A stretch of 39,579 bases of DNA from UHGV virus genome UHGV-0251828. One strand, 5' to 3'. Of the stretch, positions 1 to 39,579 are shown piece by piece. The stretch's first letter is position 1. The number at the start of each line of letters is the position of its first letter. The notes below the pieces were generated by a model. The model searched no databases, was not told where the DNA came from, and worked only from the letters and a program-made list of their open reading frames with translations. The stretch is from a virus. The position numbers and the translations under genes were made by a program.

Positions 1-134
1 ACGACGGGCACGACGTATCGGGCGCGGCGGCGGAGCTGACCACCATGTTCTGCTACATCGTCGGTGTGAGCAAATGCCTGCGTGATATCCAGACGCACGC
101 GGAGTACATCAACGACAAGGCAGGGTTCTTCTGA
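1..134 (+). CDS. 3' end of a CDS entering from the window edge; probably the C-terminus of the Bro-N antirepressor-like CDS at 39003..39579
   Basis: Open frame from position 3 to TGA at 132-134; the 577 nt of the terminal ORF leave 1 nt that completes a codon with positions 1-2; no stop in the joined frame. Confidence 0.45.
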   Translation, partial: DGHDVSGAAAELTTMFCYIVGVSKCLRDIQTHAEYINDKAGFF

Positions 135-142
135 CGGGCGGC

Positions 143-165
143 GGCACAGGGATGTGCCTTTAAAT
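143..165 (+). terminator. intrinsic terminator-like hairpin after the wrapped CDS
   Basis: GGCACA-GGGA-TGTGCC stem-loop followed by TTTAAATAATT. Confidence 0.4.
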
Positions 166-206
166 AATTCTGTACAGATTGCAGACTGTGGGTGAATAGC
201 GTACTA

Positions 207-221
207 TTACCTCAAGGGTAA
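207..221. promoter_or_regulatory. operator-family site TTACCTCAAGGGTAA overlapping a candidate promoter
   Basis: Perfect TTACC-N5-GGTAA; TTGCAG (179-184), 17-bp spacer, TACTAT (202-207) immediately upstream. Confidence 0.55.
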
Positions 222-281
222 ACGGATTGGTTTCATTTTTATTAATCCGTGTAATGAACTTATGAGATATGAGGTAATGTC

Positions 282-461
282 ATGCGAAACGAAAAATTGC
301 AGATGCGTAGAGCGCAAGCTGCCGCAAGACGTTCTTTCAATGGAAGCGTAGAGTGCGTAAAAGTTACTATGACAAAAGATCACGCAAGTCGCGTATCCCG
401 CGCTTTCTTTGATTCTCGTAACAATAAGGAAAATTATGAGTTCGTCTGCGTCGCAGAATGA
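282..461 (+). CDS. hypothetical 59-aa protein with Arg/Ala-rich N-terminus; overlaps next gene by 26 nt
   Basis: ATG with GAGGT Shine-Dalgarno 7 nt upstream; not in ORF track (<60 aa); hand-translated MRNEKLQMRRAQAAARRSF... Confidence 0.35.
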   Translation: MRNEKLQMRRAQAAARRSFNGSVECVKVTMTKDHASRVSRAFFDSRNNKENYEFVCVAE

Positions 462-981
462 TAAAAATCAAATTGTCAGATATAAGGGTCGAGTATTGCA
501 TACGCAAAATTTCTCGGCCCTTTGTGCATCTGATCTTGAGCTGAAGAAAGTATCTGATGCCTTTACCCAGTATTGGAAAACGGGATACCATCCATCTCTT
601 GGTAAAGATGCTGCATTTGCTCGTCCGACAGAAATGCTTAAACTAAATGTCAGGCATACTCATGTCGATAACCAAGACTATATTCCAGAAGATAGTGATA
701 AAAAACACACTGGTAAAAAATCATCTTGGGATGCATGGAAAAAAATAGCGTCTGTGCAAGTAAAATGCATACCAACAAGTAATTGCTTTTTAGTTTATTC
801 GGTAAATCACAATCGTGATGCGCTGGTTATGTTTTTTGTTGACGCAGATGCCCACAACATAACTGAGCAAGAAGAGTTTAAAGAGGCAGCAATCACTATC
901 AGTTATCAATTCTTTGAGAAAACAAAAACAGAACCAATGCCTTTAGAAGAAGATCTTTTTTCTGATAAATGGAAGGAATAA
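436..981 (+). CDS. AT-rich accessory protein, 181 aa; possible YafO-like toxin fold (from memory)
   Basis: ATG at 436 with AAGGA SD (track ORF 409..981 starts at an upstream TTG); motifs VRHTHVD and FLVYSV...DADAH; terminator directly downstream. Confidence 0.6.
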   Translation: MSSSASQNDKNQIVRYKGRVLHTQNFSALCASDLELKKVSDAFTQYWKTGYHPSLGKDAAFARPTEMLKLNVRHTHVDNQDYIPEDSDKKHTGKKSSWDAWKKIASVQVKCIPTSNCFLVYSVNHNRDALVMFFVDADAHNITEQEEFKEAAITISYQFFEKTKTEPMPLEEDLFSDKWKE

Positions 982-1003
982 GCCCGCGCCGCGGGCTTTT
1001 TTG
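981..1003 (+). terminator. intrinsic terminator
   Basis: GCCCG-CGC-CGGGC hairpin followed by TTTTTT. Confidence 0.7.
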
Positions 1004-1074
1004 TGGACGAAACAAAAGTCAGTGCTACACTCATTGACGCCACATTGAGGTGGATTATAGATGGAAATTTCACA

Positions 1075-1236
1075 ATGAAAAAAGCATTTGCTGCACTGTT
1101 CGTTTTGTTGTCTCTGGTAGCTTCAACTCAGGCCTTTGCCGGTCGTTGTCAGCACGACAGCGATACTGCCGCTGACGGCTCCCGCTGCGGTGGGCGTTCT
1201 GCGGATTCCCGCCCGGGTGGCGGTGGCATTCGTTAA
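1075..1236 (+). CDS. small secreted peptide (53 aa; predicted Sec signal peptide, ~31-aa mature part with 2 Cys)
   Basis: MKKAFAALFVLLSLVASTQAFA signal-peptide-like N-terminus within track ORF 1003..1236; TTGACG -35-like hexamer at 1034-1039; weak SD. Confidence 0.4.
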   Translation: MKKAFAALFVLLSLVASTQAFAGRCQHDSDTAADGSRCGGRSADSRPGGGGIR

Positions 1237-1259
1237 AAACAAGGCCGCGAAAGCGGCCT
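1235..1259 (-). terminator. intrinsic terminator ending the minus-strand virion operon
   Basis: GGCCGC-GAAA-GCGGCC hairpin; T-run on minus strand (A-run 1235-1241 on plus). Confidence 0.6.
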
Positions 1260-1271
1260 GTGACATGTCAC
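1260..1271. repeat. perfect 12-bp palindrome GTGACATGTCAC, copy 1 of 3
   Basis: Exact match; contains the stop codon of the 1268..1564 gene; abuts the terminator hairpin. Confidence 0.8.
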
Positions 1272-1564
1272 GTTCCTTTTCTGAATGATAGCCGTTCGAA
1301 AAATGATGACATTCCACCGCAGACAATAGCAAAGATGATCCCACCAAAGAAGAGAAGGCCAGCCTGCCACCACTCCCACCGCCATACATCCACAGCGCCA
1401 ATCATACCAACAATCGCTCCAACAAACGGAATATAACTCACGACAAAAGCAACGGGAGCTGCAATTACCCAGTGCAACCCCCACCATGATTCAAGCCCAG
1501 CCATAATTGCTGCCAACTGAAAAAGACCAACGACGATATAAACAATGAATCCTATAGCTTGCAT
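1268..1564 (-). CDS. small membrane protein (98 aa, about 3 predicted TM segments)
   Basis: Track ORF; ATG with AGGTGA SD; hydrophobic segments. Confidence 0.6.
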   Translation of the reverse strand: MQAIGFIVYIVVGLFQLAAIMAGLESWWGLHWVIAAPVAFVVSYIPFVGAIVGMIGAVDVWRWEWWQAGLLFFGGIIFAIVCGGMSSFFERLSFRKGT

Positions 1565-1576
1565 GTAGTCACCTAT

Positions 1577-1750
1577 TTACCCATTAAAAATCAGAGGCCT
1601 CCCCTCAATAAGGCTTGCAACAAGAACTACTCCCTGCACAACAAAGATGAACCAGCAAATAGCTTGAGTCTGAGGGTTAAGAAAATATTTGTAGCGGTCA
1701 ATAAATAACAATCCACCAGAAATTATCACACTCAAAATAATTAAAAACAC
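1577..1750 (-). CDS. small hydrophobic protein (~57 aa), GTG start
   Basis: Hand-translated; AGGAAG SD 5 nt before GTG; two hydrophobic stretches; below ORF-track size cut-off. Confidence 0.3.
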   Translation of the reverse strand: MFLIILSVIISGGLLFIDRYKYFLNPQTQAICWFIFVVQGVVLVASLIEGRPLIFNG

Positions 1751-1759
1751 AACACTTCC

Positions 1760-4234
1760 TTATTGCGGAGTGACATCCTGAGGTCGCCACCAGTATGTCT
1801 GGTTAAACTCTTTCTTCGAACGTTGCTCCATTTTACGCAAATAGCCTGGTGAAAAATACTCCTGCATCTGGTTAAAGATCATGTGATCGAGAGCCGCCTT
1901 CAAGTACCAGAGATTCGCACCAGGCATCAAACCTTTCCCCAGCTTCACCAGATCACCACCAGTCTGCTCACTCTTCCCTTCCACAGCATTTAACGGTATG
2001 CCCTGAGCAATCTTCACTACGTCATCAACCAGACCAGCTACCGGGCCAAGCATCGACGCCAGCGCGCCGCTTCCGTACCTAGTGTGATCTGACAATAAAA
2101 AGTCACCATAAAGGCCAAGACCACCACCTTTCAGTAGAGCACCAAGCCAGAATTTTGCGGCATCTTCTCCTGTCATCTCTCGAGGATTACGACCAGACGC
2201 AAGGTCGTTAAGTTGTTGCGACAAAGCGCCAAGAATGGTCGTACTGGCAATAAACGTCGCAATATATGCCGCACGCCCACCAGCAGACGGCATACCCATA
2301 GCGCGTGACCAGTGACGCATAACAACCGAGATAGGGAACGATTTAAACAGGAAAACACTTCTCGTTAATTCACCTTTCCATGTTCCACGCTGAATACCAG
2401 AACCGGTTATCAGTTGCTCACGTGCTCCCGGTGTAATAACAGCCATATCAACTTCTTCAGTTACGGCACCGAGCAGTTTACGCATTGCCTCAAATTTCAC
2501 GCGTTCAGGCTCACCAAGATGTTTAACTGCTGAATCAGGGATACGCATAATGCTTTCCGGTGTCAGCATCGTATTATTACCGTTCCCCCAGTCCTCCTGT
2601 TGCGCCAGCTTCCATACGCTCCAGTCTGTGTCAGTAATCCCTTTGCTTTTCAGGATACGAAAATCAGAGTCATCGAGGCTACGAAGGTCTGGTGTTCGTG
2701 ACACTACTTCTCCCAGGCTTCCCATCATGGTTACGCCATAGGCGCGCTTGTGCGCATCTGACCATGCTGTAAGCCCACTGGCACGCATTACCGCCGTTGC
2801 CGCCCAACGAGACACTGACGGCCCCATATTATCCATCGCCCAGCGGTTAACGCTGCCAAGTAGAGATTCCATCGCCAGACCAGCGCGGCGCGCCCGCGCA
2901 AGTTCTGTACGGTTCGTTGGGTCCATAGCTTCAAGCTGGTTGCGGAATAACTGGTTCATTGGAAGGTTGGTAACCTTCGCAGACAGATACATGGTTCCAA
3001 GATCAGAGAACGATGACAGCAACGCGGATCCGAGTCTGCTGGCAACCAGCCAGTTGCGGATATTGTCAGACCATCGCGCGATGTGCGGATTCGCTACAGG
3101 CTGTGTCTTTCCGGAAATAAAGTTGTACAGATTCTCTGTGTTGTTCGCCAGCCGCTCGACTTTACCGGTTTTACTCGGGTTAGCTGTTGCCGTTTCTGCC
3201 TTAACCTGATCAAGAAGGGAGCGGAAAACATGATCGGGGTTTGGACCATATGTTTCCACCAGTGCAATATCTTTACTGATACCTTCCAGGTGACCGACCA
3301 TGATTTCCCATAGAGAGCGATCGCCATAAAGTTGCTGATATTGCAGATAGGAATCTGCATCTTTGAAATGTATCTGTCGTGATGCATTACCACGGTTAGC
3401 ACGTGCGCCGGAAATTCGCATTCCGGTATCAGTAAGCTTATTCAGCCCACCAGTAGCGATCGTGTTATAAGCCTCTCCAAGAAATGCAGACAACTCGGCA
3501 TCGTTCATCAGTTGTCCATCGGCTCGGATATAATATTTGCGATCCAGCTTACCTATAACATCGCTAACCCACTTATCCTTTGATACCGCCCCAACCTTTT
3601 CCATAGAATGATGTTGAGGGATCCCCCAGTTTTCGAGATAGCCAATGTCCCCACCAGCATCATTAAACCTGCGGCGCAGTAGCTCTGTCACTTCTCTCCA
3701 CGCCTTAGCACCTTTTCTTGCTTTAGCATTGCCAGTATTTTGCCCCCGCATTTCATATACCAGGTCACGTACGCCCGCTTCATCTTCAAACAGACCAAAA
3801 AAGCGAGGATCAACTGCTTCGAATGCCTCCTGCAATTGACTCAATGCATAATCACGGGTGGCTTTTGTTCTGGATTCAACAGAGAGGAAATTCGATTTAC
3901 CGTCTGCATTAAAAGCAATAGTACGGTTAAGAGCGCCAAGTTTCCCATCAGCCCCTTGATAGCTATTGATAAATTTATCCAATCTCTGACGTGCGGCTAT
4001 AGTGAGGGCCACACGACGTTTCTTTAATGCCGCTTCTCGCTGTAATTCTTCAGATGCCAATTGTGCTGCACGATATAGCCGCTCTGATTCGGAAAGTTGT
4101 CTCCACGACATCGGGTCATCACGAGCAATGGAGCGCATATTTCGATAAATGCGGTCTTCAATGTTCTGTATTTCTCGCGCCGTTAACGTGCGCTGCGCCG
4201 CCTGCTGGACCGCTTGTATACATTCCTGTCTCAT
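1760..4234 (-). CDS. internal virion/ejection protein (T7 gp16-like position)
   Basis: 824-aa track ORF; GAGAGG SD; last large gene of the virion operon. Confidence 0.75.
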   Translation of the reverse strand: MRQECIQAVQQAAQRTLTAREIQNIEDRIYRNMRSIARDDPMSWRQLSESERLYRAAQLASEELQREAALKKRRVALTIAARQRLDKFINSYQGADGKLGALNRTIAFNADGKSNFLSVESRTKATRDYALSQLQEAFEAVDPRFFGLFEDEAGVRDLVYEMRGQNTGNAKARKGAKAWREVTELLRRRFNDAGGDIGYLENWGIPQHHSMEKVGAVSKDKWVSDVIGKLDRKYYIRADGQLMNDAELSAFLGEAYNTIATGGLNKLTDTGMRISGARANRGNASRQIHFKDADSYLQYQQLYGDRSLWEIMVGHLEGISKDIALVETYGPNPDHVFRSLLDQVKAETATANPSKTGKVERLANNTENLYNFISGKTQPVANPHIARWSDNIRNWLVASRLGSALLSSFSDLGTMYLSAKVTNLPMNQLFRNQLEAMDPTNRTELARARRAGLAMESLLGSVNRWAMDNMGPSVSRWAATAVMRASGLTAWSDAHKRAYGVTMMGSLGEVVSRTPDLRSLDDSDFRILKSKGITDTDWSVWKLAQQEDWGNGNNTMLTPESIMRIPDSAVKHLGEPERVKFEAMRKLLGAVTEEVDMAVITPGAREQLITGSGIQRGTWKGELTRSVFLFKSFPISVVMRHWSRAMGMPSAGGRAAYIATFIASTTILGALSQQLNDLASGRNPREMTGEDAAKFWLGALLKGGGLGLYGDFLLSDHTRYGSGALASMLGPVAGLVDDVVKIAQGIPLNAVEGKSEQTGGDLVKLGKGLMPGANLWYLKAALDHMIFNQMQEYFSPGYLRKMEQRSKKEFNQTYWWRPQDVTPQ

Positions 4235-6042: not shown

Positions 6043-8552
6043 TGCGGAATATCTCCGGAGAATCTCTGACGCTTCTGTGTCAGATTAAGAACAACGGGAG
6101 AACCATCATCTTTCAGCAGATAACCAGTACCAAGTTTCACCAGGTACTGACTATCGCCGTAACTTTGCAAACCATACTGACCAGGCGGTGTTTTTATCCC
6201 GGAGCCGACAACTTGTTCATTCCAAGCCTGATTAACCTGCTTATCGAATTGCTCTGCAGACATTCCCCACGGCAAAAGGACATTCCCCATTCCGTTATAG
6301 TCATGCACGCCACCTGTAGCTACGTTAACAGCCTGTTTCCAGACATCATTGTCAATTTCGCCTGGTACCACGCCTTTTTTCGCCATCACACCAGCGTAAT
6401 AGTCCTTTGCGATCTCGTATGCCATTGATGCCCCCTGAGCATCACCAGCAAATGCATCCTTCACCATGTCAGAAAACTCAAGGCGAAGATCAGCATCTTT
6501 AGGCATCGGAATACCTTTCGCATCATCAGTACCTTTACGAGCAGCCGCGCCAGCAAGAATTGTCTGCGCAGCGGTTTCAGGAGACACGGAAACATCCGGA
6601 TTAAACCAGTTTTTTTCTGCCAAAATACCACTAGGCTTATCCATCAGTATCCCGGCAACGGCAGCAGATGGAGCGTTGGCACTGATCTGCTGTAGTGCTG
6701 ACATATACACCTGCCCACCACCAGTGCTTTGCCTGATGGTATCGAGATATGCTGCCTGTTGGGAAACTGGCGCATCACGAAAGAAAACACCGATTTGATT
6801 GGCCTCGTCTTTGGAAAAGAACGTCAGTGGAGTGCCATATGACTTGGCAAGATCACTAACCTGAGCGGCACGCAAGGCAACGCTCTGTCCAAAGTTATCC
6901 TTATTGCTCATGTCGATAGGCTTTGCCTGTCCGGCGGCAAGAGAGAACTGCACAGGATCCGATTGCCGCTGCTTTATCACCTGATTTGCAGCCGAAACAA
7001 CGTTGTCATAAAGAGCTGCGCGAGCCGCATAACCCTCCCCTGTCTCACCAGTATCTGGGCGCAATTGCTCAACATATGCTGTAATGCTGCTTGTCGGCAT
7101 GTTGCGGAAAGAGCCTATATACTGTCCGGCGATCTGCGTATTTCTGAACTCGGTATATCGCAGGTTTCCTTCTCTGACGCCATAAGCTGCAATAAAATCA
7201 TCCTCACCTGGTGGGTTAGGAAATTCAACGCCACGCATATACGCAGCCGTCGCATCGCGAACCCGGCTGTCGAGCATCGTTTTATATTCAGCCTGCTGTT
7301 GTCTGGCTAGTGCATCAGTCTGTCGCAACACGCTGGCCTGATCTGATTCACTTAAAGCATCGAACCAGGCTACACCGGTATAACGTTTATTTTTTGTCGG
7401 TAGCTGAGAAAGCCCCAGCGCGGCACTAACACCATCAGTTAACTGCTGATCACTGTATGGCTGGCTACCGTTTTCATGATGGATAATGGCTGCACAAAGC
7501 GCCTTCAGGGTATCAGGATTTGATGCATCGAGAGGCTCATCAGCAGAAACGCCAAGTTGTTCGCACACTGCTTTGATATACGACATAGTGTCATTTTTAT
7601 CAGTAGGCGGTGCCCAGCGATTAATTATCTCGCTGACGGTATCAATACCCTGCCGCTGATACGACATCAGGTTCCGCCCTAATGCACGAATACCGTGTTC
7701 AGGGGTTTCGAATTTGGCAAAGCGACCATCATCACCAGTCTGCCCAACCCACGGATTAGTTTTGCTGTATTCAAGATTGCCGGGGTTATTGTTGCGTATA
7801 CCGCGGGTACGATCGGAAGAGCCACTATCTGCTACAGCACGGCGAGATCCAACAGCAGTATCGCTTAACTCGCCGTTTTGCTGTCTTACCTGAAGATAGT
7901 TTGCTCCAATAGCATTTTGAGCAGTTGCTTTTGCTGTTGCTTCTTTAAACTCGATTTTCTTGGCCCGAATCTGCTCGTCGCTCCAGCCATGCGCAATGCC
8001 GTAATCCTCAATTTGCTGGAAAGTTTGCTTATTAGCCAATACGTATGCGGCGTTGTCGCCATACAATGCTGCGGCATTTTTACCATTGTTCAGCAGCGTA
8101 GCCTGAAACTGACCTTCTTCGTAGGCATTTATTTGCCCTATCTCGTGCCGCCCGGCCTGCGTAGTGAACTGAATACGCTGCTGCTGTGCCTGCTGCATGA
8201 AAGCATTACGAGCCTGTTCATCTTGCAGCGACATAGCCAGTTGTTCGACCTGAGCATCAAACTGCTGCGTATACTCCTGACCTTTTCCAATAGCATTTTT
8301 CCCTTTCAGGTTAAGCAAACCTGTTTCAGGGTTATTCAGCAGATCGCTGCTTATCTGACTGAGGTTAAGAGATGCCTCCTGTGCCAGAGCGATATTGGCA
8401 CGCTGTTTTGCCTGACCAAAAACATCAATTGCCTCTGTCCCTGCCCGAACAAAAGCATCACCAATACCTGGCTGAGAAAACGTCTGCAAGCCTGCTGACT
8501 GAACTCCACGACTCTCAACCTGACGTCCGGATACTGTTGGTACAACTGGCAT
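6039..8552 (-). CDS. internal virion protein (T7 gp15-like position), ~837 aa
   Basis: Track ORF 6039..8627 trimmed to ATG at 8552 (GGAGG SD, TAATG overlap with upstream stop). Confidence 0.75.
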   Translation of the reverse strand: MPVVPTVSGRQVESRGVQSAGLQTFSQPGIGDAFVRAGTEAIDVFGQAKQRANIALAQEASLNLSQISSDLLNNPETGLLNLKGKNAIGKGQEYTQQFDAQVEQLAMSLQDEQARNAFMQQAQQQRIQFTTQAGRHEIGQINAYEEGQFQATLLNNGKNAAALYGDNAAYVLANKQTFQQIEDYGIAHGWSDEQIRAKKIEFKEATAKATAQNAIGANYLQVRQQNGELSDTAVGSRRAVADSGSSDRTRGIRNNNPGNLEYSKTNPWVGQTGDDGRFAKFETPEHGIRALGRNLMSYQRQGIDTVSEIINRWAPPTDKNDTMSYIKAVCEQLGVSADEPLDASNPDTLKALCAAIIHHENGSQPYSDQQLTDGVSAALGLSQLPTKNKRYTGVAWFDALSESDQASVLRQTDALARQQQAEYKTMLDSRVRDATAAYMRGVEFPNPPGEDDFIAAYGVREGNLRYTEFRNTQIAGQYIGSFRNMPTSSITAYVEQLRPDTGETGEGYAARAALYDNVVSAANQVIKQRQSDPVQFSLAAGQAKPIDMSNKDNFGQSVALRAAQVSDLAKSYGTPLTFFSKDEANQIGVFFRDAPVSQQAAYLDTIRQSTGGGQVYMSALQQISANAPSAAVAGILMDKPSGILAEKNWFNPDVSVSPETAAQTILAGAAARKGTDDAKGIPMPKDADLRLEFSDMVKDAFAGDAQGASMAYEIAKDYYAGVMAKKGVVPGEIDNDVWKQAVNVATGGVHDYNGMGNVLLPWGMSAEQFDKQVNQAWNEQVVGSGIKTPPGQYGLQSYGDSQYLVKLGTGYLLKDDGSPVVLNLTQKRQRFSGDIPQ

Positions 8553-9097
8553 TATAATCCTCCGGGTAATCTGGTTCCTGCTGCTGCCCCGATTGGCGCA
8601 GGAGTGCTTTGAGTAAACGGACTCCACGTCCCACCAAACATCTGGTACGCACCGTATGCCTTCAGAGGCGCAGTGAGCAATGTTGTTGCTGCTCCCACAT
8701 TCACCTGTTTACGGGCTGAACTGGCTTCTGCTTTATAGTTGGCAGCCTGAACCTGATAACCGTAAGCCTCGCGTTGCGCGTTATTCACCGTCGTCAGAGA
8801 ATCAAGAGCGCCAAACTGGGCAGTGTCGCCAAATATATCCAGCGCGTTACCTGTAGATAAATCAGCGCCGGTAGCCCCCATTGTCGCCGCCTGTGTACCA
8901 AGCCGCTGTCGGGTCTCTCTGCGCCGTTGCTCAGCTTCAGCGTTACCTCTGTTTATTGCATCATTTGCCTGAGCTGTGGCTATATCTGCGTTCGCTTCTG
9001 CAACCTTCGAGGCATACTTTCCCTGTTGGTACTGGGTGTATGCCTGAATGCCACTCATGGCGAGCATTGCGCCACCAGCAATAACCGGATCGCACAT
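8552..9097 (-). CDS. internal virion protein B-like (181 aa)
   Basis: Track ORF; translationally coupled; Ala/Gln-rich with N-terminal hydrophobic segment. Confidence 0.65.
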   Translation of the reverse strand: MCDPVIAGGAMLAMSGIQAYTQYQQGKYASKVAEANADIATAQANDAINRGNAEAEQRRRETRQRLGTQAATMGATGADLSTGNALDIFGDTAQFGALDSLTTVNNAQREAYGYQVQAANYKAEASSARKQVNVGAATTLLTAPLKAYGAYQMFGGTWSPFTQSTPAPIGAAAGTRLPGGL

Positions 9098-18159: not shown

Positions 18160-18236
18160 GTGGCATTAGCTCAGTTGGACAGAGCAACCGCCTTCTAAGC
18201 GGTTGGTCGCAGGTTCGAATCCTGCATGCCACGCCA
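18160..18236 (+). tRNA. tRNA-Arg (anticodon TCT)
   Basis: Hand-folded cloverleaf: 7-bp acceptor GTGGCAT/ATGCCAC, D-stem GCTC/GAGC, anticodon stem ACCGC/GCGGT with loop CTTCTAA, T-stem GCAGG/CCTGC, T-loop TTCGAAT, encoded CCA. Confidence 0.9.
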
Positions 18237-38733: not shown

Positions 38734-38823
38734 ATTTACATAGCACTCCTCTTGTGCCATAGTAATCGGGCACTGGCAAAATCCAGTGCCGGGATTGGCG
38801 TCCCGAGTTACTAAGTGGCGCAT

Positions 38824-38847
38824 ACCACGCCAGACGTGGTTTTTTTA
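38824..38847 (+). terminator. intrinsic terminator-like hairpin in the leader of the Bro-N gene
   Basis: CCACG-CCAGA-CGTGG hairpin followed by TTTTTTT. Confidence 0.5.
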
Positions 38848-39002
38848 TGCGTTAAGCACAGCTATATCCGAATTATGGTGGGCTGGGCAGGGGTCCGAAA
38901 GGACGCCGGTACCACTTAGGCCGGTACGCCAACCTTGTCCAGTTCACCACCAGTAATTGGCGTTGCGGTGGTGATTAAAATCACTAAGTGGAGATAACCA
39001 CC

Positions 39003-39579
39003 ATGGCTAATGCTCAAACTGCCATCTTCAAATTTGAATCTGTTAACCCTATCCGTTCCATCATTATCGATGGCCAACCATGGTTTGTAGCCCAAGACGT
39101 TTGTAGTGCGCTGCGTATCCAAAACGTCACCCAAGCACTTGAAAAACTGGATGATGATGAAAGGTCTATGTTCAACATAGGGCATGAACATCGTGCAATT
39201 TTTGACAGCCGAGTAAAAGAGATCAACATCATCTCCGAGTCAGGCCTCTACACACTGATCCTCCGCTGCCGCGACGCAGTGACACCAGGCACTATCCCAT
39301 ACCGCTTTCGTAAATGGGTTACAGGTGAGGTTCTTCCTCAGATCCGCCGCACCGGAAGTTACATTAAAAACTCGCTCCCGCAGGAAGAGCGCATAAAGAT
39401 GGTTGCCGACCAGGTAGCCAACGCCACAGCATCAGCAGTGATGCAGGCGATGAAGATAGAGAACAAAACCTACAGTGCCCCACTGAAGCCCGGCTACCGC
39501 AGCCTGATTCATTCGCCGTCTGGTGTTCTCGGCCTGACGGAGAACTCACTGCTGATGAATCTGCTGAACCAGTTACAGG
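39003..39579 (+). CDS. Bro-N/KilA-type antirepressor-like protein, 3'-truncated by the window edge
   Basis: 192 codons without stop; GGAG SD; motif NPIRSIIIDGQPWFVAQDVCSAL. Confidence 0.7.
   Translation, partial: MANAQTAIFKFESVNPIRSIIIDGQPWFVAQDVCSALRIQNVTQALEKLDDDERSMFNIGHEHRAIFDSRVKEINIISESGLYTLILRCRDAVTPGTIPYRFRKWVTGEVLPQIRRTGSYIKNSLPQEERIKMVADQVANATASAVMQAMKIENKTYSAPLKPGYRSLIHSPSGVLGLTENSLLMNLLNQLQ

Follow-up and report, generated by a model that had tools for sequence, protein, structure and literature searches.

The virus genome UHGV-0251828, a 39,579-nucleotide stretch of DNA that is called the window here, belongs to a Uetakevirus-type (epsilon15/phiV10-like) temperate Escherichia coli podovirus and carries a short open reading frame (ORF) at nucleotides 1075-1236. 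The locus raises the question of what so small a gene produces and where the product acts. A preliminary description, made from the nucleotide sequence, had taken nucleotides 1034-1259 for a stand-alone gene encoding a small Cys-containing peptide exported through the Sec pathway. As a prediction, this overall reading was supported by all the computational evidence collected here. The best explanation of the data as a whole, which we consider moderately probable, is that the gene is a moron cassette whose product is exported by Sec, cleaved by signal peptidase I (SPase I), and released as a periplasmic, envelope-binding mini-protein. The gene is already annotated and uncharacterised, and its family has been catalogued. 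New here are the structure of the cassette, the evidence that favours cleavage over an anchor, and the insight that the peptide represents, in free form, a broad domain that has no match in Pfam, NCBIfam, or the PDB.

Results and Discussion

A conserved gene for a 53-amino acid precursor

The + strand ORF extends from ATG 1075 to TAA 1236, and its 53 codons specify the precursor MKKAFAALFVLLSLVASTQAFA followed by GRCQHDSDTAADGSRCGGRSADSRPGGGGIR. The small stand-alone ORF postulated earlier was thus borne out, with a match to the PHROG 14503 profile over its full length (residues 1-53 on profile positions 1-53 of 53, E 2.3e-40). The second PHROG match of the protein, phrog_3117, is a 77-amino acid version. 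PHROG 14503 is named 'membrane associated protein' and is placed in the moron category. The 162-nucleotide coding sequence is annotated as '(putative) transmembrane anchored protein' (TL-2011b gp43, YP_007001994.1) or as 'hypothetical protein' (WP_000708858.1); the family is identical, the TL-2011b coding sequence is equal in size, and there is no structural difference between them and the gene in the window. E. coli PCN033, an extraintestinal pathogenic strain, and the enterotoxigenic strain H10407 have the identical protein in their annotations. These two are among the 498 of 5,426 complete E. coli genomes (~9%) that carry the gene on its cassette, as do hundreds of phage contigs. In IMG/VR, 344 contigs encode a relative, and the best 80 of them encode the identical protein. 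Homologues formed 57 clusters in a first search and 946 in a second, word-indexed search. Their hosts include E. coli, Shigella, Citrobacter, Klebsiella, Raoultella, Enterobacter, Pantoea, Cronobacter, and Salmonella, and further Pectobacterium, Dickeya, Pseudomonas, Mesorhizobium, Microvirga, and Methylobacterium. The preliminary description had named a lack of conservation in related phages as the outcome that would speak against the gene; the ORF is conserved in related and in unrelated phages.

Alignment of the close homologues showed that the signal peptide varies and that the mature part hardly changes, with 16 of its 31 columns, both Cys residues among them, invariant. Strong purifying selection acts on the mature part when genera are compared. 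When a 25-codon core was compared between E. coli, Klebsiella, Cronobacter, and Pectobacterium, the proportion of synonymous differences (pS) was 0.62-0.72 versus a proportion of nonsynonymous differences (pN) of 0.04-0.09; the pN of the signal-peptide region between these genera was 0.09-0.26. The copies of E. coli and Pseudomonas phages share ~78% identity (hand count) in the mature part or core and only 28% in the adjacent virion protein. The ORF is a real protein gene, far beyond chance; its start, stop, and frame are kept across genera and the changes between them are nearly all synonymous.

The 31-residue mature part (3.06 kDa, isoelectric point ~8.1) has the composition G8 R5 D4 S4 A3 C2, in agreement with the Gly/Arg/Asp/Ser-rich peptide with two Cys described before, and its two Cys residues are 13 residues apart. 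The GC-rich 3' half that had been observed was also recovered: the DNA coding for the mature peptide has 67% GC and the 100-nucleotide windows across 1101-1250 have 60-66%, versus 44% for the DNA coding for the signal peptide and 39% for the accessory region upstream (150-1000). A contrast of this kind with the neighbours is expected of a moron, and it is in part a codon effect of a sequence rich in Gly, Arg, and Ala.

Predicted export and cleavage

The precursor encoded in the window has a basic n-region (MKK), a hydrophobic core of 13 residues (AFAALFVLLSLVA), a polar c-region, and an AFA-G cleavage site with A20 and A22. The features defined by von Heijne were scored on 143 stand-alone homologues. 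Position -3 is Ala, Ser, or Val in 132 of them, position -1 is Ala, Ser, Gly, or Thr in 130, and position +1 is Gly in 132; an n-region of the type M..K/R lies 17-32 residues upstream of the site in 125. The SPase I (-3, -1) motif is therefore kept in ~92% of these homologues, and the hydrophobic core drifts. SPase I processing is favoured because the cleavage motif is kept while the core drifts, which argues for a cleaved signal rather than for the transmembrane anchor of the database names; the latter are guesses from the hydrophobic N-terminus. The Sec signal peptide proposed in the preliminary description is supported as a prediction, by its n-, h-, and c-regions as well as by the AXA site and the -3/-1 rule.

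Processing by signal peptidase II as a lipoprotein was considered and rejected. The precursor has no lipobox ([LVI][ASTVI][GAS]C), and in its sequence ...QAFAGRC an Arg stands between the Gly and the Cys. The Cronobacter variant (AYAAC) is the only one that comes near a lipobox. After export and cleavage, DsbA would join C25 and C38 of the precursor by a disulfide bond.

An autonomous cassette between two terminators

The gene is the last + strand gene of an accessory region bounded by the tailspike gene and the converging internal-virion (ejection) genes, and it occupies a cassette of its own of ~300 bp that consists of a terminator, a weak promoter, the gene, and a terminator with a palindrome (Table 1). 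To locate homology breakpoints, the 80 best IMG/VR contigs, all of which encode the identical protein, were aligned to the window. Homology ended on the left at 950-999 in 60 of the 80 loci and on the right at 1260-1289 in 58 of them, and these breakpoints coincide with the two terminators. The identical protein was found in 10 different left and 8 different right contexts, and in phiV10 the terminator is kept and the gene is missing. On the right-hand side the alternative cargo comprises other small membrane, lipoprotein-like, or secreted ORFs, or Ant/Arc; in a Klebsiella prophage it includes a homologue of the type VI secretion system (T6SS) immunity protein Rap1a. The accessory region of Cronobacter prophages is reduced to an 85-amino acid gene and the peptide gene. 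The stand-alone character claimed for the gene was supported in this way, since terminators and homology breakpoints together define an autonomous cassette.

The cassette behaves as a classic moron because it has terminators, sharp breakpoints, many contexts, and a patchy presence among relatives. It resembles the morons of the type of lambda bor, lom, and those of HK97 in being a small autonomous unit with flanking terminators and, as predicted, an envelope-targeted product, in its insertion between operons near tail or ejection genes and on the strand opposite to the flanking virion genes, in its odd composition, and in its presence or absence among close relatives. This follows the moron concept as it has been described (PMC3594210, PMC3573123). 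Unlike those examples, the gene in the window has a product that is much smaller (31 amino acids when mature) and a promoter that is only a candidate, and it is not related to them in sequence.

A wider two-Cys domain

A modular domain of ~28 amino acids, GNCx4DxAxDGSRCGxR[SA]AxxRPGG, has its minimal stand-alone form in the mature peptide. A search of 1.84 billion cluster representatives with the profile of the mature part retrieved 187 proteins at E<=1e-3. In the family of the window the core C-x4-D-x-A-x-DGSRCG-x-RSA-x-SRPGG follows an N-terminal hydrophobic segment and the total length is ~50 amino acids. Across the wider set the domain ends at most five residues from the C-terminus in 94 of 146 representatives. 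Often an anchor of the membrane or lipoprotein type and a linker rich in Gly and Ser precede it, sometimes a signal peptide stands immediately before it, and a duplicated domain is seen occasionally. Both Cys and a single Arg never vary among 95 sequences. A subtype with four Cys also exists (GNCPCPYD...RSAYSRPGGxSPxCY).

The domain is widespread in Proteobacteria, cyanobacteria, and other diderms. In data with one genome per species, 56 species carry it, among them Rhizobiales, Vibrio, Tolumonas, Rhodoferax, Bacteriovorax, Polyangiaceae, and several cyanobacteria, and in 45 of the 56 it is a stand-alone gene of at most 80 amino acids. Some stand-alone copies are chromosomal and lie among housekeeping genes (bacA-gene-ffh, greA-gene-carB), and others belong to further prophage types of Pectobacterium, Microvirga, and Pseudomonas. 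The domains that co-occur with it in longer proteins are T2SS-T3SS_pil_N (four cases), SH3_3 (three cases), PG_binding_1, PG_binding_2, and NucA/NucB; all of them are extracytoplasmic and several bind the cell wall. Pfam gave no match at E<=1 with the whole protein or at E<=10 with 20 mature peptides, and no NCBIfam model matches the peptide or the domain.

Regulatory elements around the gene

The elements of the cassette are listed in Table 1. The terminator at its left edge closes the upstream immI/YafO-like transcription unit. The candidate promoter that follows matches at 8 of 12 positions, below the threshold of the promoter scan (9/12), and from it transcription is predicted to start at ~1037-1039. 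Its -10-like block, CTAnaCT, is kept across genera, and at the equivalent place in Cronobacter the scan called a promoter, TTGTGA-16-TAAAAT, directly 5' of the corresponding hairpin. The preliminary description had instead assigned the gene a -35-like hexamer. This hexamer, TTGACG, is present, and its role as a -35 element was not upheld, since no acceptable -10 lies 16-18 nucleotides away: TATAGA lacks the final T and ATAGAT lacks the A at position 2. TTGACG is probably not the promoter and sits at about the likely transcription start, and the weak extended -10 promoter fits better with the Cronobacter homologue.

A hairpin of differing sequence occupies the place of the small stem-loop in Klebsiella, Cronobacter, and Pectobacterium, so that such a structure is present in four of the four lineages examined. 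The Shine-Dalgarno sequences of other enterobacterial phage copies are as weak as that of the window (-2.8 to -4.2 kcal/mol). The hairpin at the right end has equivalents in Klebsiella and Pectobacterium that score as + strand terminators, and the phiV10 record labels the equivalent stretch 'terminator'. The palindrome next to it is kept in E. coli and Cronobacter cassettes and coincides with the right homology breakpoint. A protein might bind there, or recombination might take place.

An upstream mini-ORF of five codons, ATGGAAATTTCACAATGA (1061-1078, + strand, MEISQ*), was also considered. It is preceded by a strong Shine-Dalgarno-like sequence, GAGGTGG, and overlaps the ATG of the gene in an ATGA. 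The mini-ORF is probably fortuitous because it is confined to E. coli copies and is not found in Klebsiella, Cronobacter, or Pectobacterium. An Rfam search of nucleotides 1-3000 at E<=1 found nothing within 1034-1259; its sole match was a chance-level small nucleolar RNA at 1616-1675.

Table 1. Coordinates of the gene, its predicted products, and the surrounding elements in the window
Feature	Position	Strand	Basis or remark
Intrinsic terminator, AAGCCCGCGCCGCGGGCTT then TTTTG	980..998	+	Scan: 8-bp stem, 6 GC pairs, T-run
Candidate weak sigma-70 promoter: TGGACG, 16-nucleotide spacer, TG-c-TACACT (extended -10)	1004..1031	+	Read from the sequence, inferred
TTGACG hexamer, proposed earlier as -35 element	1034..1039	+	Present in the sequence; no -10 partner
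Small stem-loop, CCAC-ATTGAG-GTGG	1040..1053	+	At the probable 5' end of the mRNA
Weak Shine-Dalgarno GGAA, then A/U-rich spacer	1063..1066	+	Duplex with the anti-Shine-Dalgarno, -3.3 kcal/mol
Coding sequence, precursor of the predicted secreted mini-protein	1075..1236	+	53 codons and TAA; PHROG 14503, homologues, nonsynonymous/synonymous (dN/dS) analysis
Predicted signal peptide, 22 amino acids: MKK, AFAALFVLLSLVA, STQAFA	1075..1140	+	Read from the sequence; predicted SPase I site between A22 and G23
Predicted mature peptide, 31 amino acids, GRCQHDSDTAADGSRCGGRSADSRPGGGGIR	1141..1233	+	Conserved two-Cys domain, C25 and C38 of the precursor
GC hairpin AGGCCGCGAAAGCGGCCT, terminator common to the converging transcripts	1242..1259	.	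Scored on the - strand; T-run on the - strand
Perfect 12-bp palindrome GTGACATGTCAC	1260..1271	.	Right edge of the cassette, directly after the shared terminator

Proposed mode of action and alternative explanations

We propose that the 53-amino acid precursor is exported by Sec and cut by SPase I after AFA22, which would free the 31-residue Gly/Arg/Asp/Ser-rich mini-protein into the periplasm. The two invariant Cys residues would most likely form a disulfide loop of 12 residues, with DsbA as the presumed catalyst. Expressed from the prophage, as we infer, the peptide would act stoichiometrically in the periplasm of the lysogen or the infected cell and would bind a highly conserved component of the envelope, probably one associated with peptidoglycan. 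The benefit is likely to lie in protecting or converting the envelope, as by superinfection exclusion or by shielding of the wall. That the peptide protects or excludes at the level of peptidoglycan or periplasm is a tentative guess, made because the gene is placed among lysogenic-conversion cargo and the domain has wall-binding partners. The sequence of the mature peptide hardly changes while its surroundings recombine, a pattern that points to a precise molecular target for the product in the cell envelope. The peptide is short enough to be synthesized, so ligand, phage-exclusion, and wall-protection activities are directly testable. If it were only a generic small envelope protein, it would be an ordinary, already annotated phage 'hypothetical'.

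Several observations weigh against this explanation. Expression, export, and cleavage are predictions from sequence. The promoter is weak and was not called, the scan giving no + strand call near 1034-1039, and the Shine-Dalgarno sequence is weak as well. In Pseudomonas prophages the gene is on the strand of the virion genes and no terminators were detected; given this arrangement, its status as a moron expressed from the prophage may not hold everywhere. An AlphaFold2 model built from the 95-sequence alignment has moderate confidence (predicted local distance difference test score 74) and hardly any regular secondary structure, namely one beta-bridge and a three-residue helical turn. Foldseek of this model against the PDB gave nothing better than E=5.8, and a sequence-profile search of the PDB gave no match. 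PADLOC-DB contains no match for the peptide or its five small neighbour proteins, and clustering of the neighbouring ORFs in 64 loci returned only phage synteny, with no conserved chromosomal partner. Literature searches by name, accession, or motif yielded nothing relevant on the peptide family, which two papers on small proteins do not mention (PMC11323111, PMC11188072). No ligand, partner, or phenotype can be inferred from neighbours, PADLOC, structure, or literature, and the 'periplasmic effector' of the preliminary description is a plausible guess for which no target can be named. Finally, 22 of the 146 representatives, all longer members (P0060, P0062, P0064, P0072, and others), have two hydrophobic segments before the domain, in the order signal or lipoprotein signal, short domain, second Ala/Val/Gly-rich hydrophobic segment, Gly-rich linker, and two-Cys domain. 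Read literally, this layout would place the domain in the cytoplasm, which conflicts with a universal periplasmic disulfide and with the secreted stand-alone forms.

In one alternative, the hydrophobic segment might remain uncleaved as a single inner-membrane helix that tethers the 31-amino acid module at the periplasmic face. The uncharged stretch A4-A22 measures 19 residues, the module of many longer family members sits behind a membrane tether or lipoprotein anchor and a Gly/Ser linker, and both the RefSeq name 'transmembrane anchored' and the PHROG name 'membrane associated' point the same way. Nevertheless, such a signal anchor seems unlikely, because the hydrophobic core has just 13 residues and is followed by the polar STQ and a canonical AFA-G, and because small residues at -3/-1 with Gly at +1, found in ~92% of the homologues, are the pattern of a cleavage site. 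Doubts about the protein itself, which we think highly improbable, take two forms: the DNA could serve as a terminator or recombination linker between mosaic modules, or the 77-amino acid ORF from GTG 1003 (PHROG 3117) could be the true product. The cassette does lie exactly between mosaic breakpoints, some gene callers extend the ORF to 66-93 amino acids, and its Shine-Dalgarno sequence and promoter are weak. Against a non-coding role, the DNA is saturated with synonymous changes between genera while the peptide is kept, and the Rfam search was negative across the cassette gene. The 77-amino acid product was rejected, since the N-terminal extensions of different genera lack homology to one another and are shut by stops 2-13 codons 5' of the ATG in Klebsiella, Pectobacterium, and Cronobacter, and since the extension from GTG 1003 crosses the T-tract of the terminator and has no Shine-Dalgarno sequence.

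Other alternatives accept a periplasmic peptide and give it a definite activity. T4 Spackle and Ivy are small proteins of the periplasm that inhibit peptidoglycan hydrolases, and Ivy acts through a disulfide-closed, His-containing CKPHDC loop. The product of the window is like them in its predicted Sec signal and small periplasmic form, and its Cys loop opens with C-Q-H-D. It could thus be a superinfection-exclusion or wall-protection factor in which the disulfide loop (CQHD...) plugs an enzyme that degrades peptidoglycan; examples would be a lysozyme, a T6SS amidase, or the lytic transglycosylase domain carried by incoming ejection proteins. This is the most concrete version of the guess about protection or exclusion, and neither the inhibitor nor any of these targets can be given more than a low probability. 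In epsilon15-like prophages of E. coli, Klebsiella, Cronobacter, Pantoea, Kluyvera, Buttiauxella, and Pseudomonas the gene always adjoins ejection-protein genes; a virion protein with an SLT domain is encoded nearby in Klebsiella, Cronobacter, and Microvirga; the Rap1a homologue is among the alternative cargo of the hot spot; and the module co-occurs with SH3_3 and PG_binding domains. However, a fixed insertion site of the moron also explains the proximity to ejection genes, chromosomal copies exist outside phages, and the His is conserved only in the enterobacterial subgroup and not in the wider family. The peptide is also three to five times smaller than these inhibitors, and Pfam, PHROG, PDB, and Foldseek revealed no similarity in sequence or fold to Ivy, PliC/MliC, or Spackle. 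Less probable still is a cation-binding mini-domain that would serve as a periplasmic buffer or sensor for Ca2+ or some other metal. The motif resembles DxDxDGxxCE, the Ca-binding loop of Excalibur. The spacing D-x-A-x-D-G-x-x-C-G equals that of the Excalibur motif D-x-D-x-D-G-x-x-C-E, and both domains are small, extracytoplasmic, provided with two Cys, and sometimes fused to nucleases. When 35 PF05901 proteins were aligned and the profiles were compared by hhalign, exactly those columns were aligned, but with a probability of 1.5%. Homology was rejected: the central Asp is replaced by a (nearly) invariant Ala (the window peptide reads D-T-A-A-D-G-S-R-C-G), the Cys are 13 residues apart versus ~35 in Excalibur, and there is no PF05901 match even at E<=10.

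Phage D3 Iap and the epsilon15 inhibitors of O-antigen polymerase are very small hydrophobic membrane peptides that act at the inner-membrane/periplasmic face. The gene in the window resembles theirs in its tiny size and in its location near the tailspike/conversion region of O-antigen-specific temperate phages (for the context, PMC4815439). Its predicted mature peptide differs in being hydrophilic and in being found with many tailspikes and hosts. A broader and rather doubtful view is that an ancient diderm mini-domain recognises one universal envelope target and that its free form was captured by temperate phages of several unrelated lineages, in which it would be a portable effector for the periplasm. 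The capturing lineages would be those of Enterobacterales, Pseudomonas, Pectobacterium, and Microvirga, with the blocking of a peptidoglycan enzyme or of the entry of competing phages as possible roles. Such a history would explain why the peptide is under tighter constraint than the neighbouring virion proteins.

Genomic setting

The window shares 96.7% identity with Escherichia phage phiv142-3 and 98.1% with TL-2011b around the gene, and a 233-bp query across the gene (1030-1262) was 100% identical to a prophage of E. coli PCN033. The accessory region contains, in this order, an 85-amino acid ORF, IsrK-like and C4 antisense RNAs, a Bro-N antirepressor gene, a 59-amino acid ORF with a YafO-like toxin gene, the terminator, and the peptide gene. 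Rfam matches at the gathering level identified the Hfq-binding small RNA IsrK at 38770-38846 (+, 67.2 bits) and the C4 antisense RNA at 38871-38954 (+, 66 bits). Both lie directly 5' of the Bro-N antirepressor-like ORF, and the arrangement is an immI (c4/ant) module of the P1/P7 type in the accessory region of a podovirus. The Bro-N ORF spans the ends of the window (39004-39579, then 1-134, +); therefore, the genome is circularly permuted or circular. The 59-amino acid ORF (282-461, +, phrog_6685) overlaps the toxin gene (436-981, +), which matched Pfam YafO_toxin just under the gathering score (E 6.6e-5) and phrog_1651 with E 1.9e-50. The segment 282-981 has the appearance of a type II toxin-antitoxin pair borne by a prophage, and the left position accommodates at least 10 alternative cargos, this pair among them.

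The right side of the cassette is a second hot spot for envelope-targeted cargo. In the window it carries a 98-amino acid hydrophobic protein (1268-1564, -, phrog_3075) and a 57-amino acid hydrophobic ORF (1577-1750, -), both at the end of the virion operon. A 181-amino acid ORF at 8552-9097 (-) matched the T7 gp14 internal virion protein family (E 7.6e-8), which fits the adjacent large ORFs as ejection (internal core) proteins. In a Pseudomonas epsilon15-like prophage the gene is found at the equivalent place, between an 855-amino acid ejection protein and the tailspike, on the virion strand. A Pectobacterium polaris contig carries, at 1-397, a gene for a protein with ferredoxin and colicin-M domains (pectocin M-like) ~5.6 kb from the peptide gene, and the gene for a 1,366-amino acid MuF_C-domain protein lies between the two; the proximity of the pectocin M-like gene is probably coincidental. 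The phage genome of the window also includes a tRNA-Arg gene (anticodon TCT) at 18160-18236 (+).

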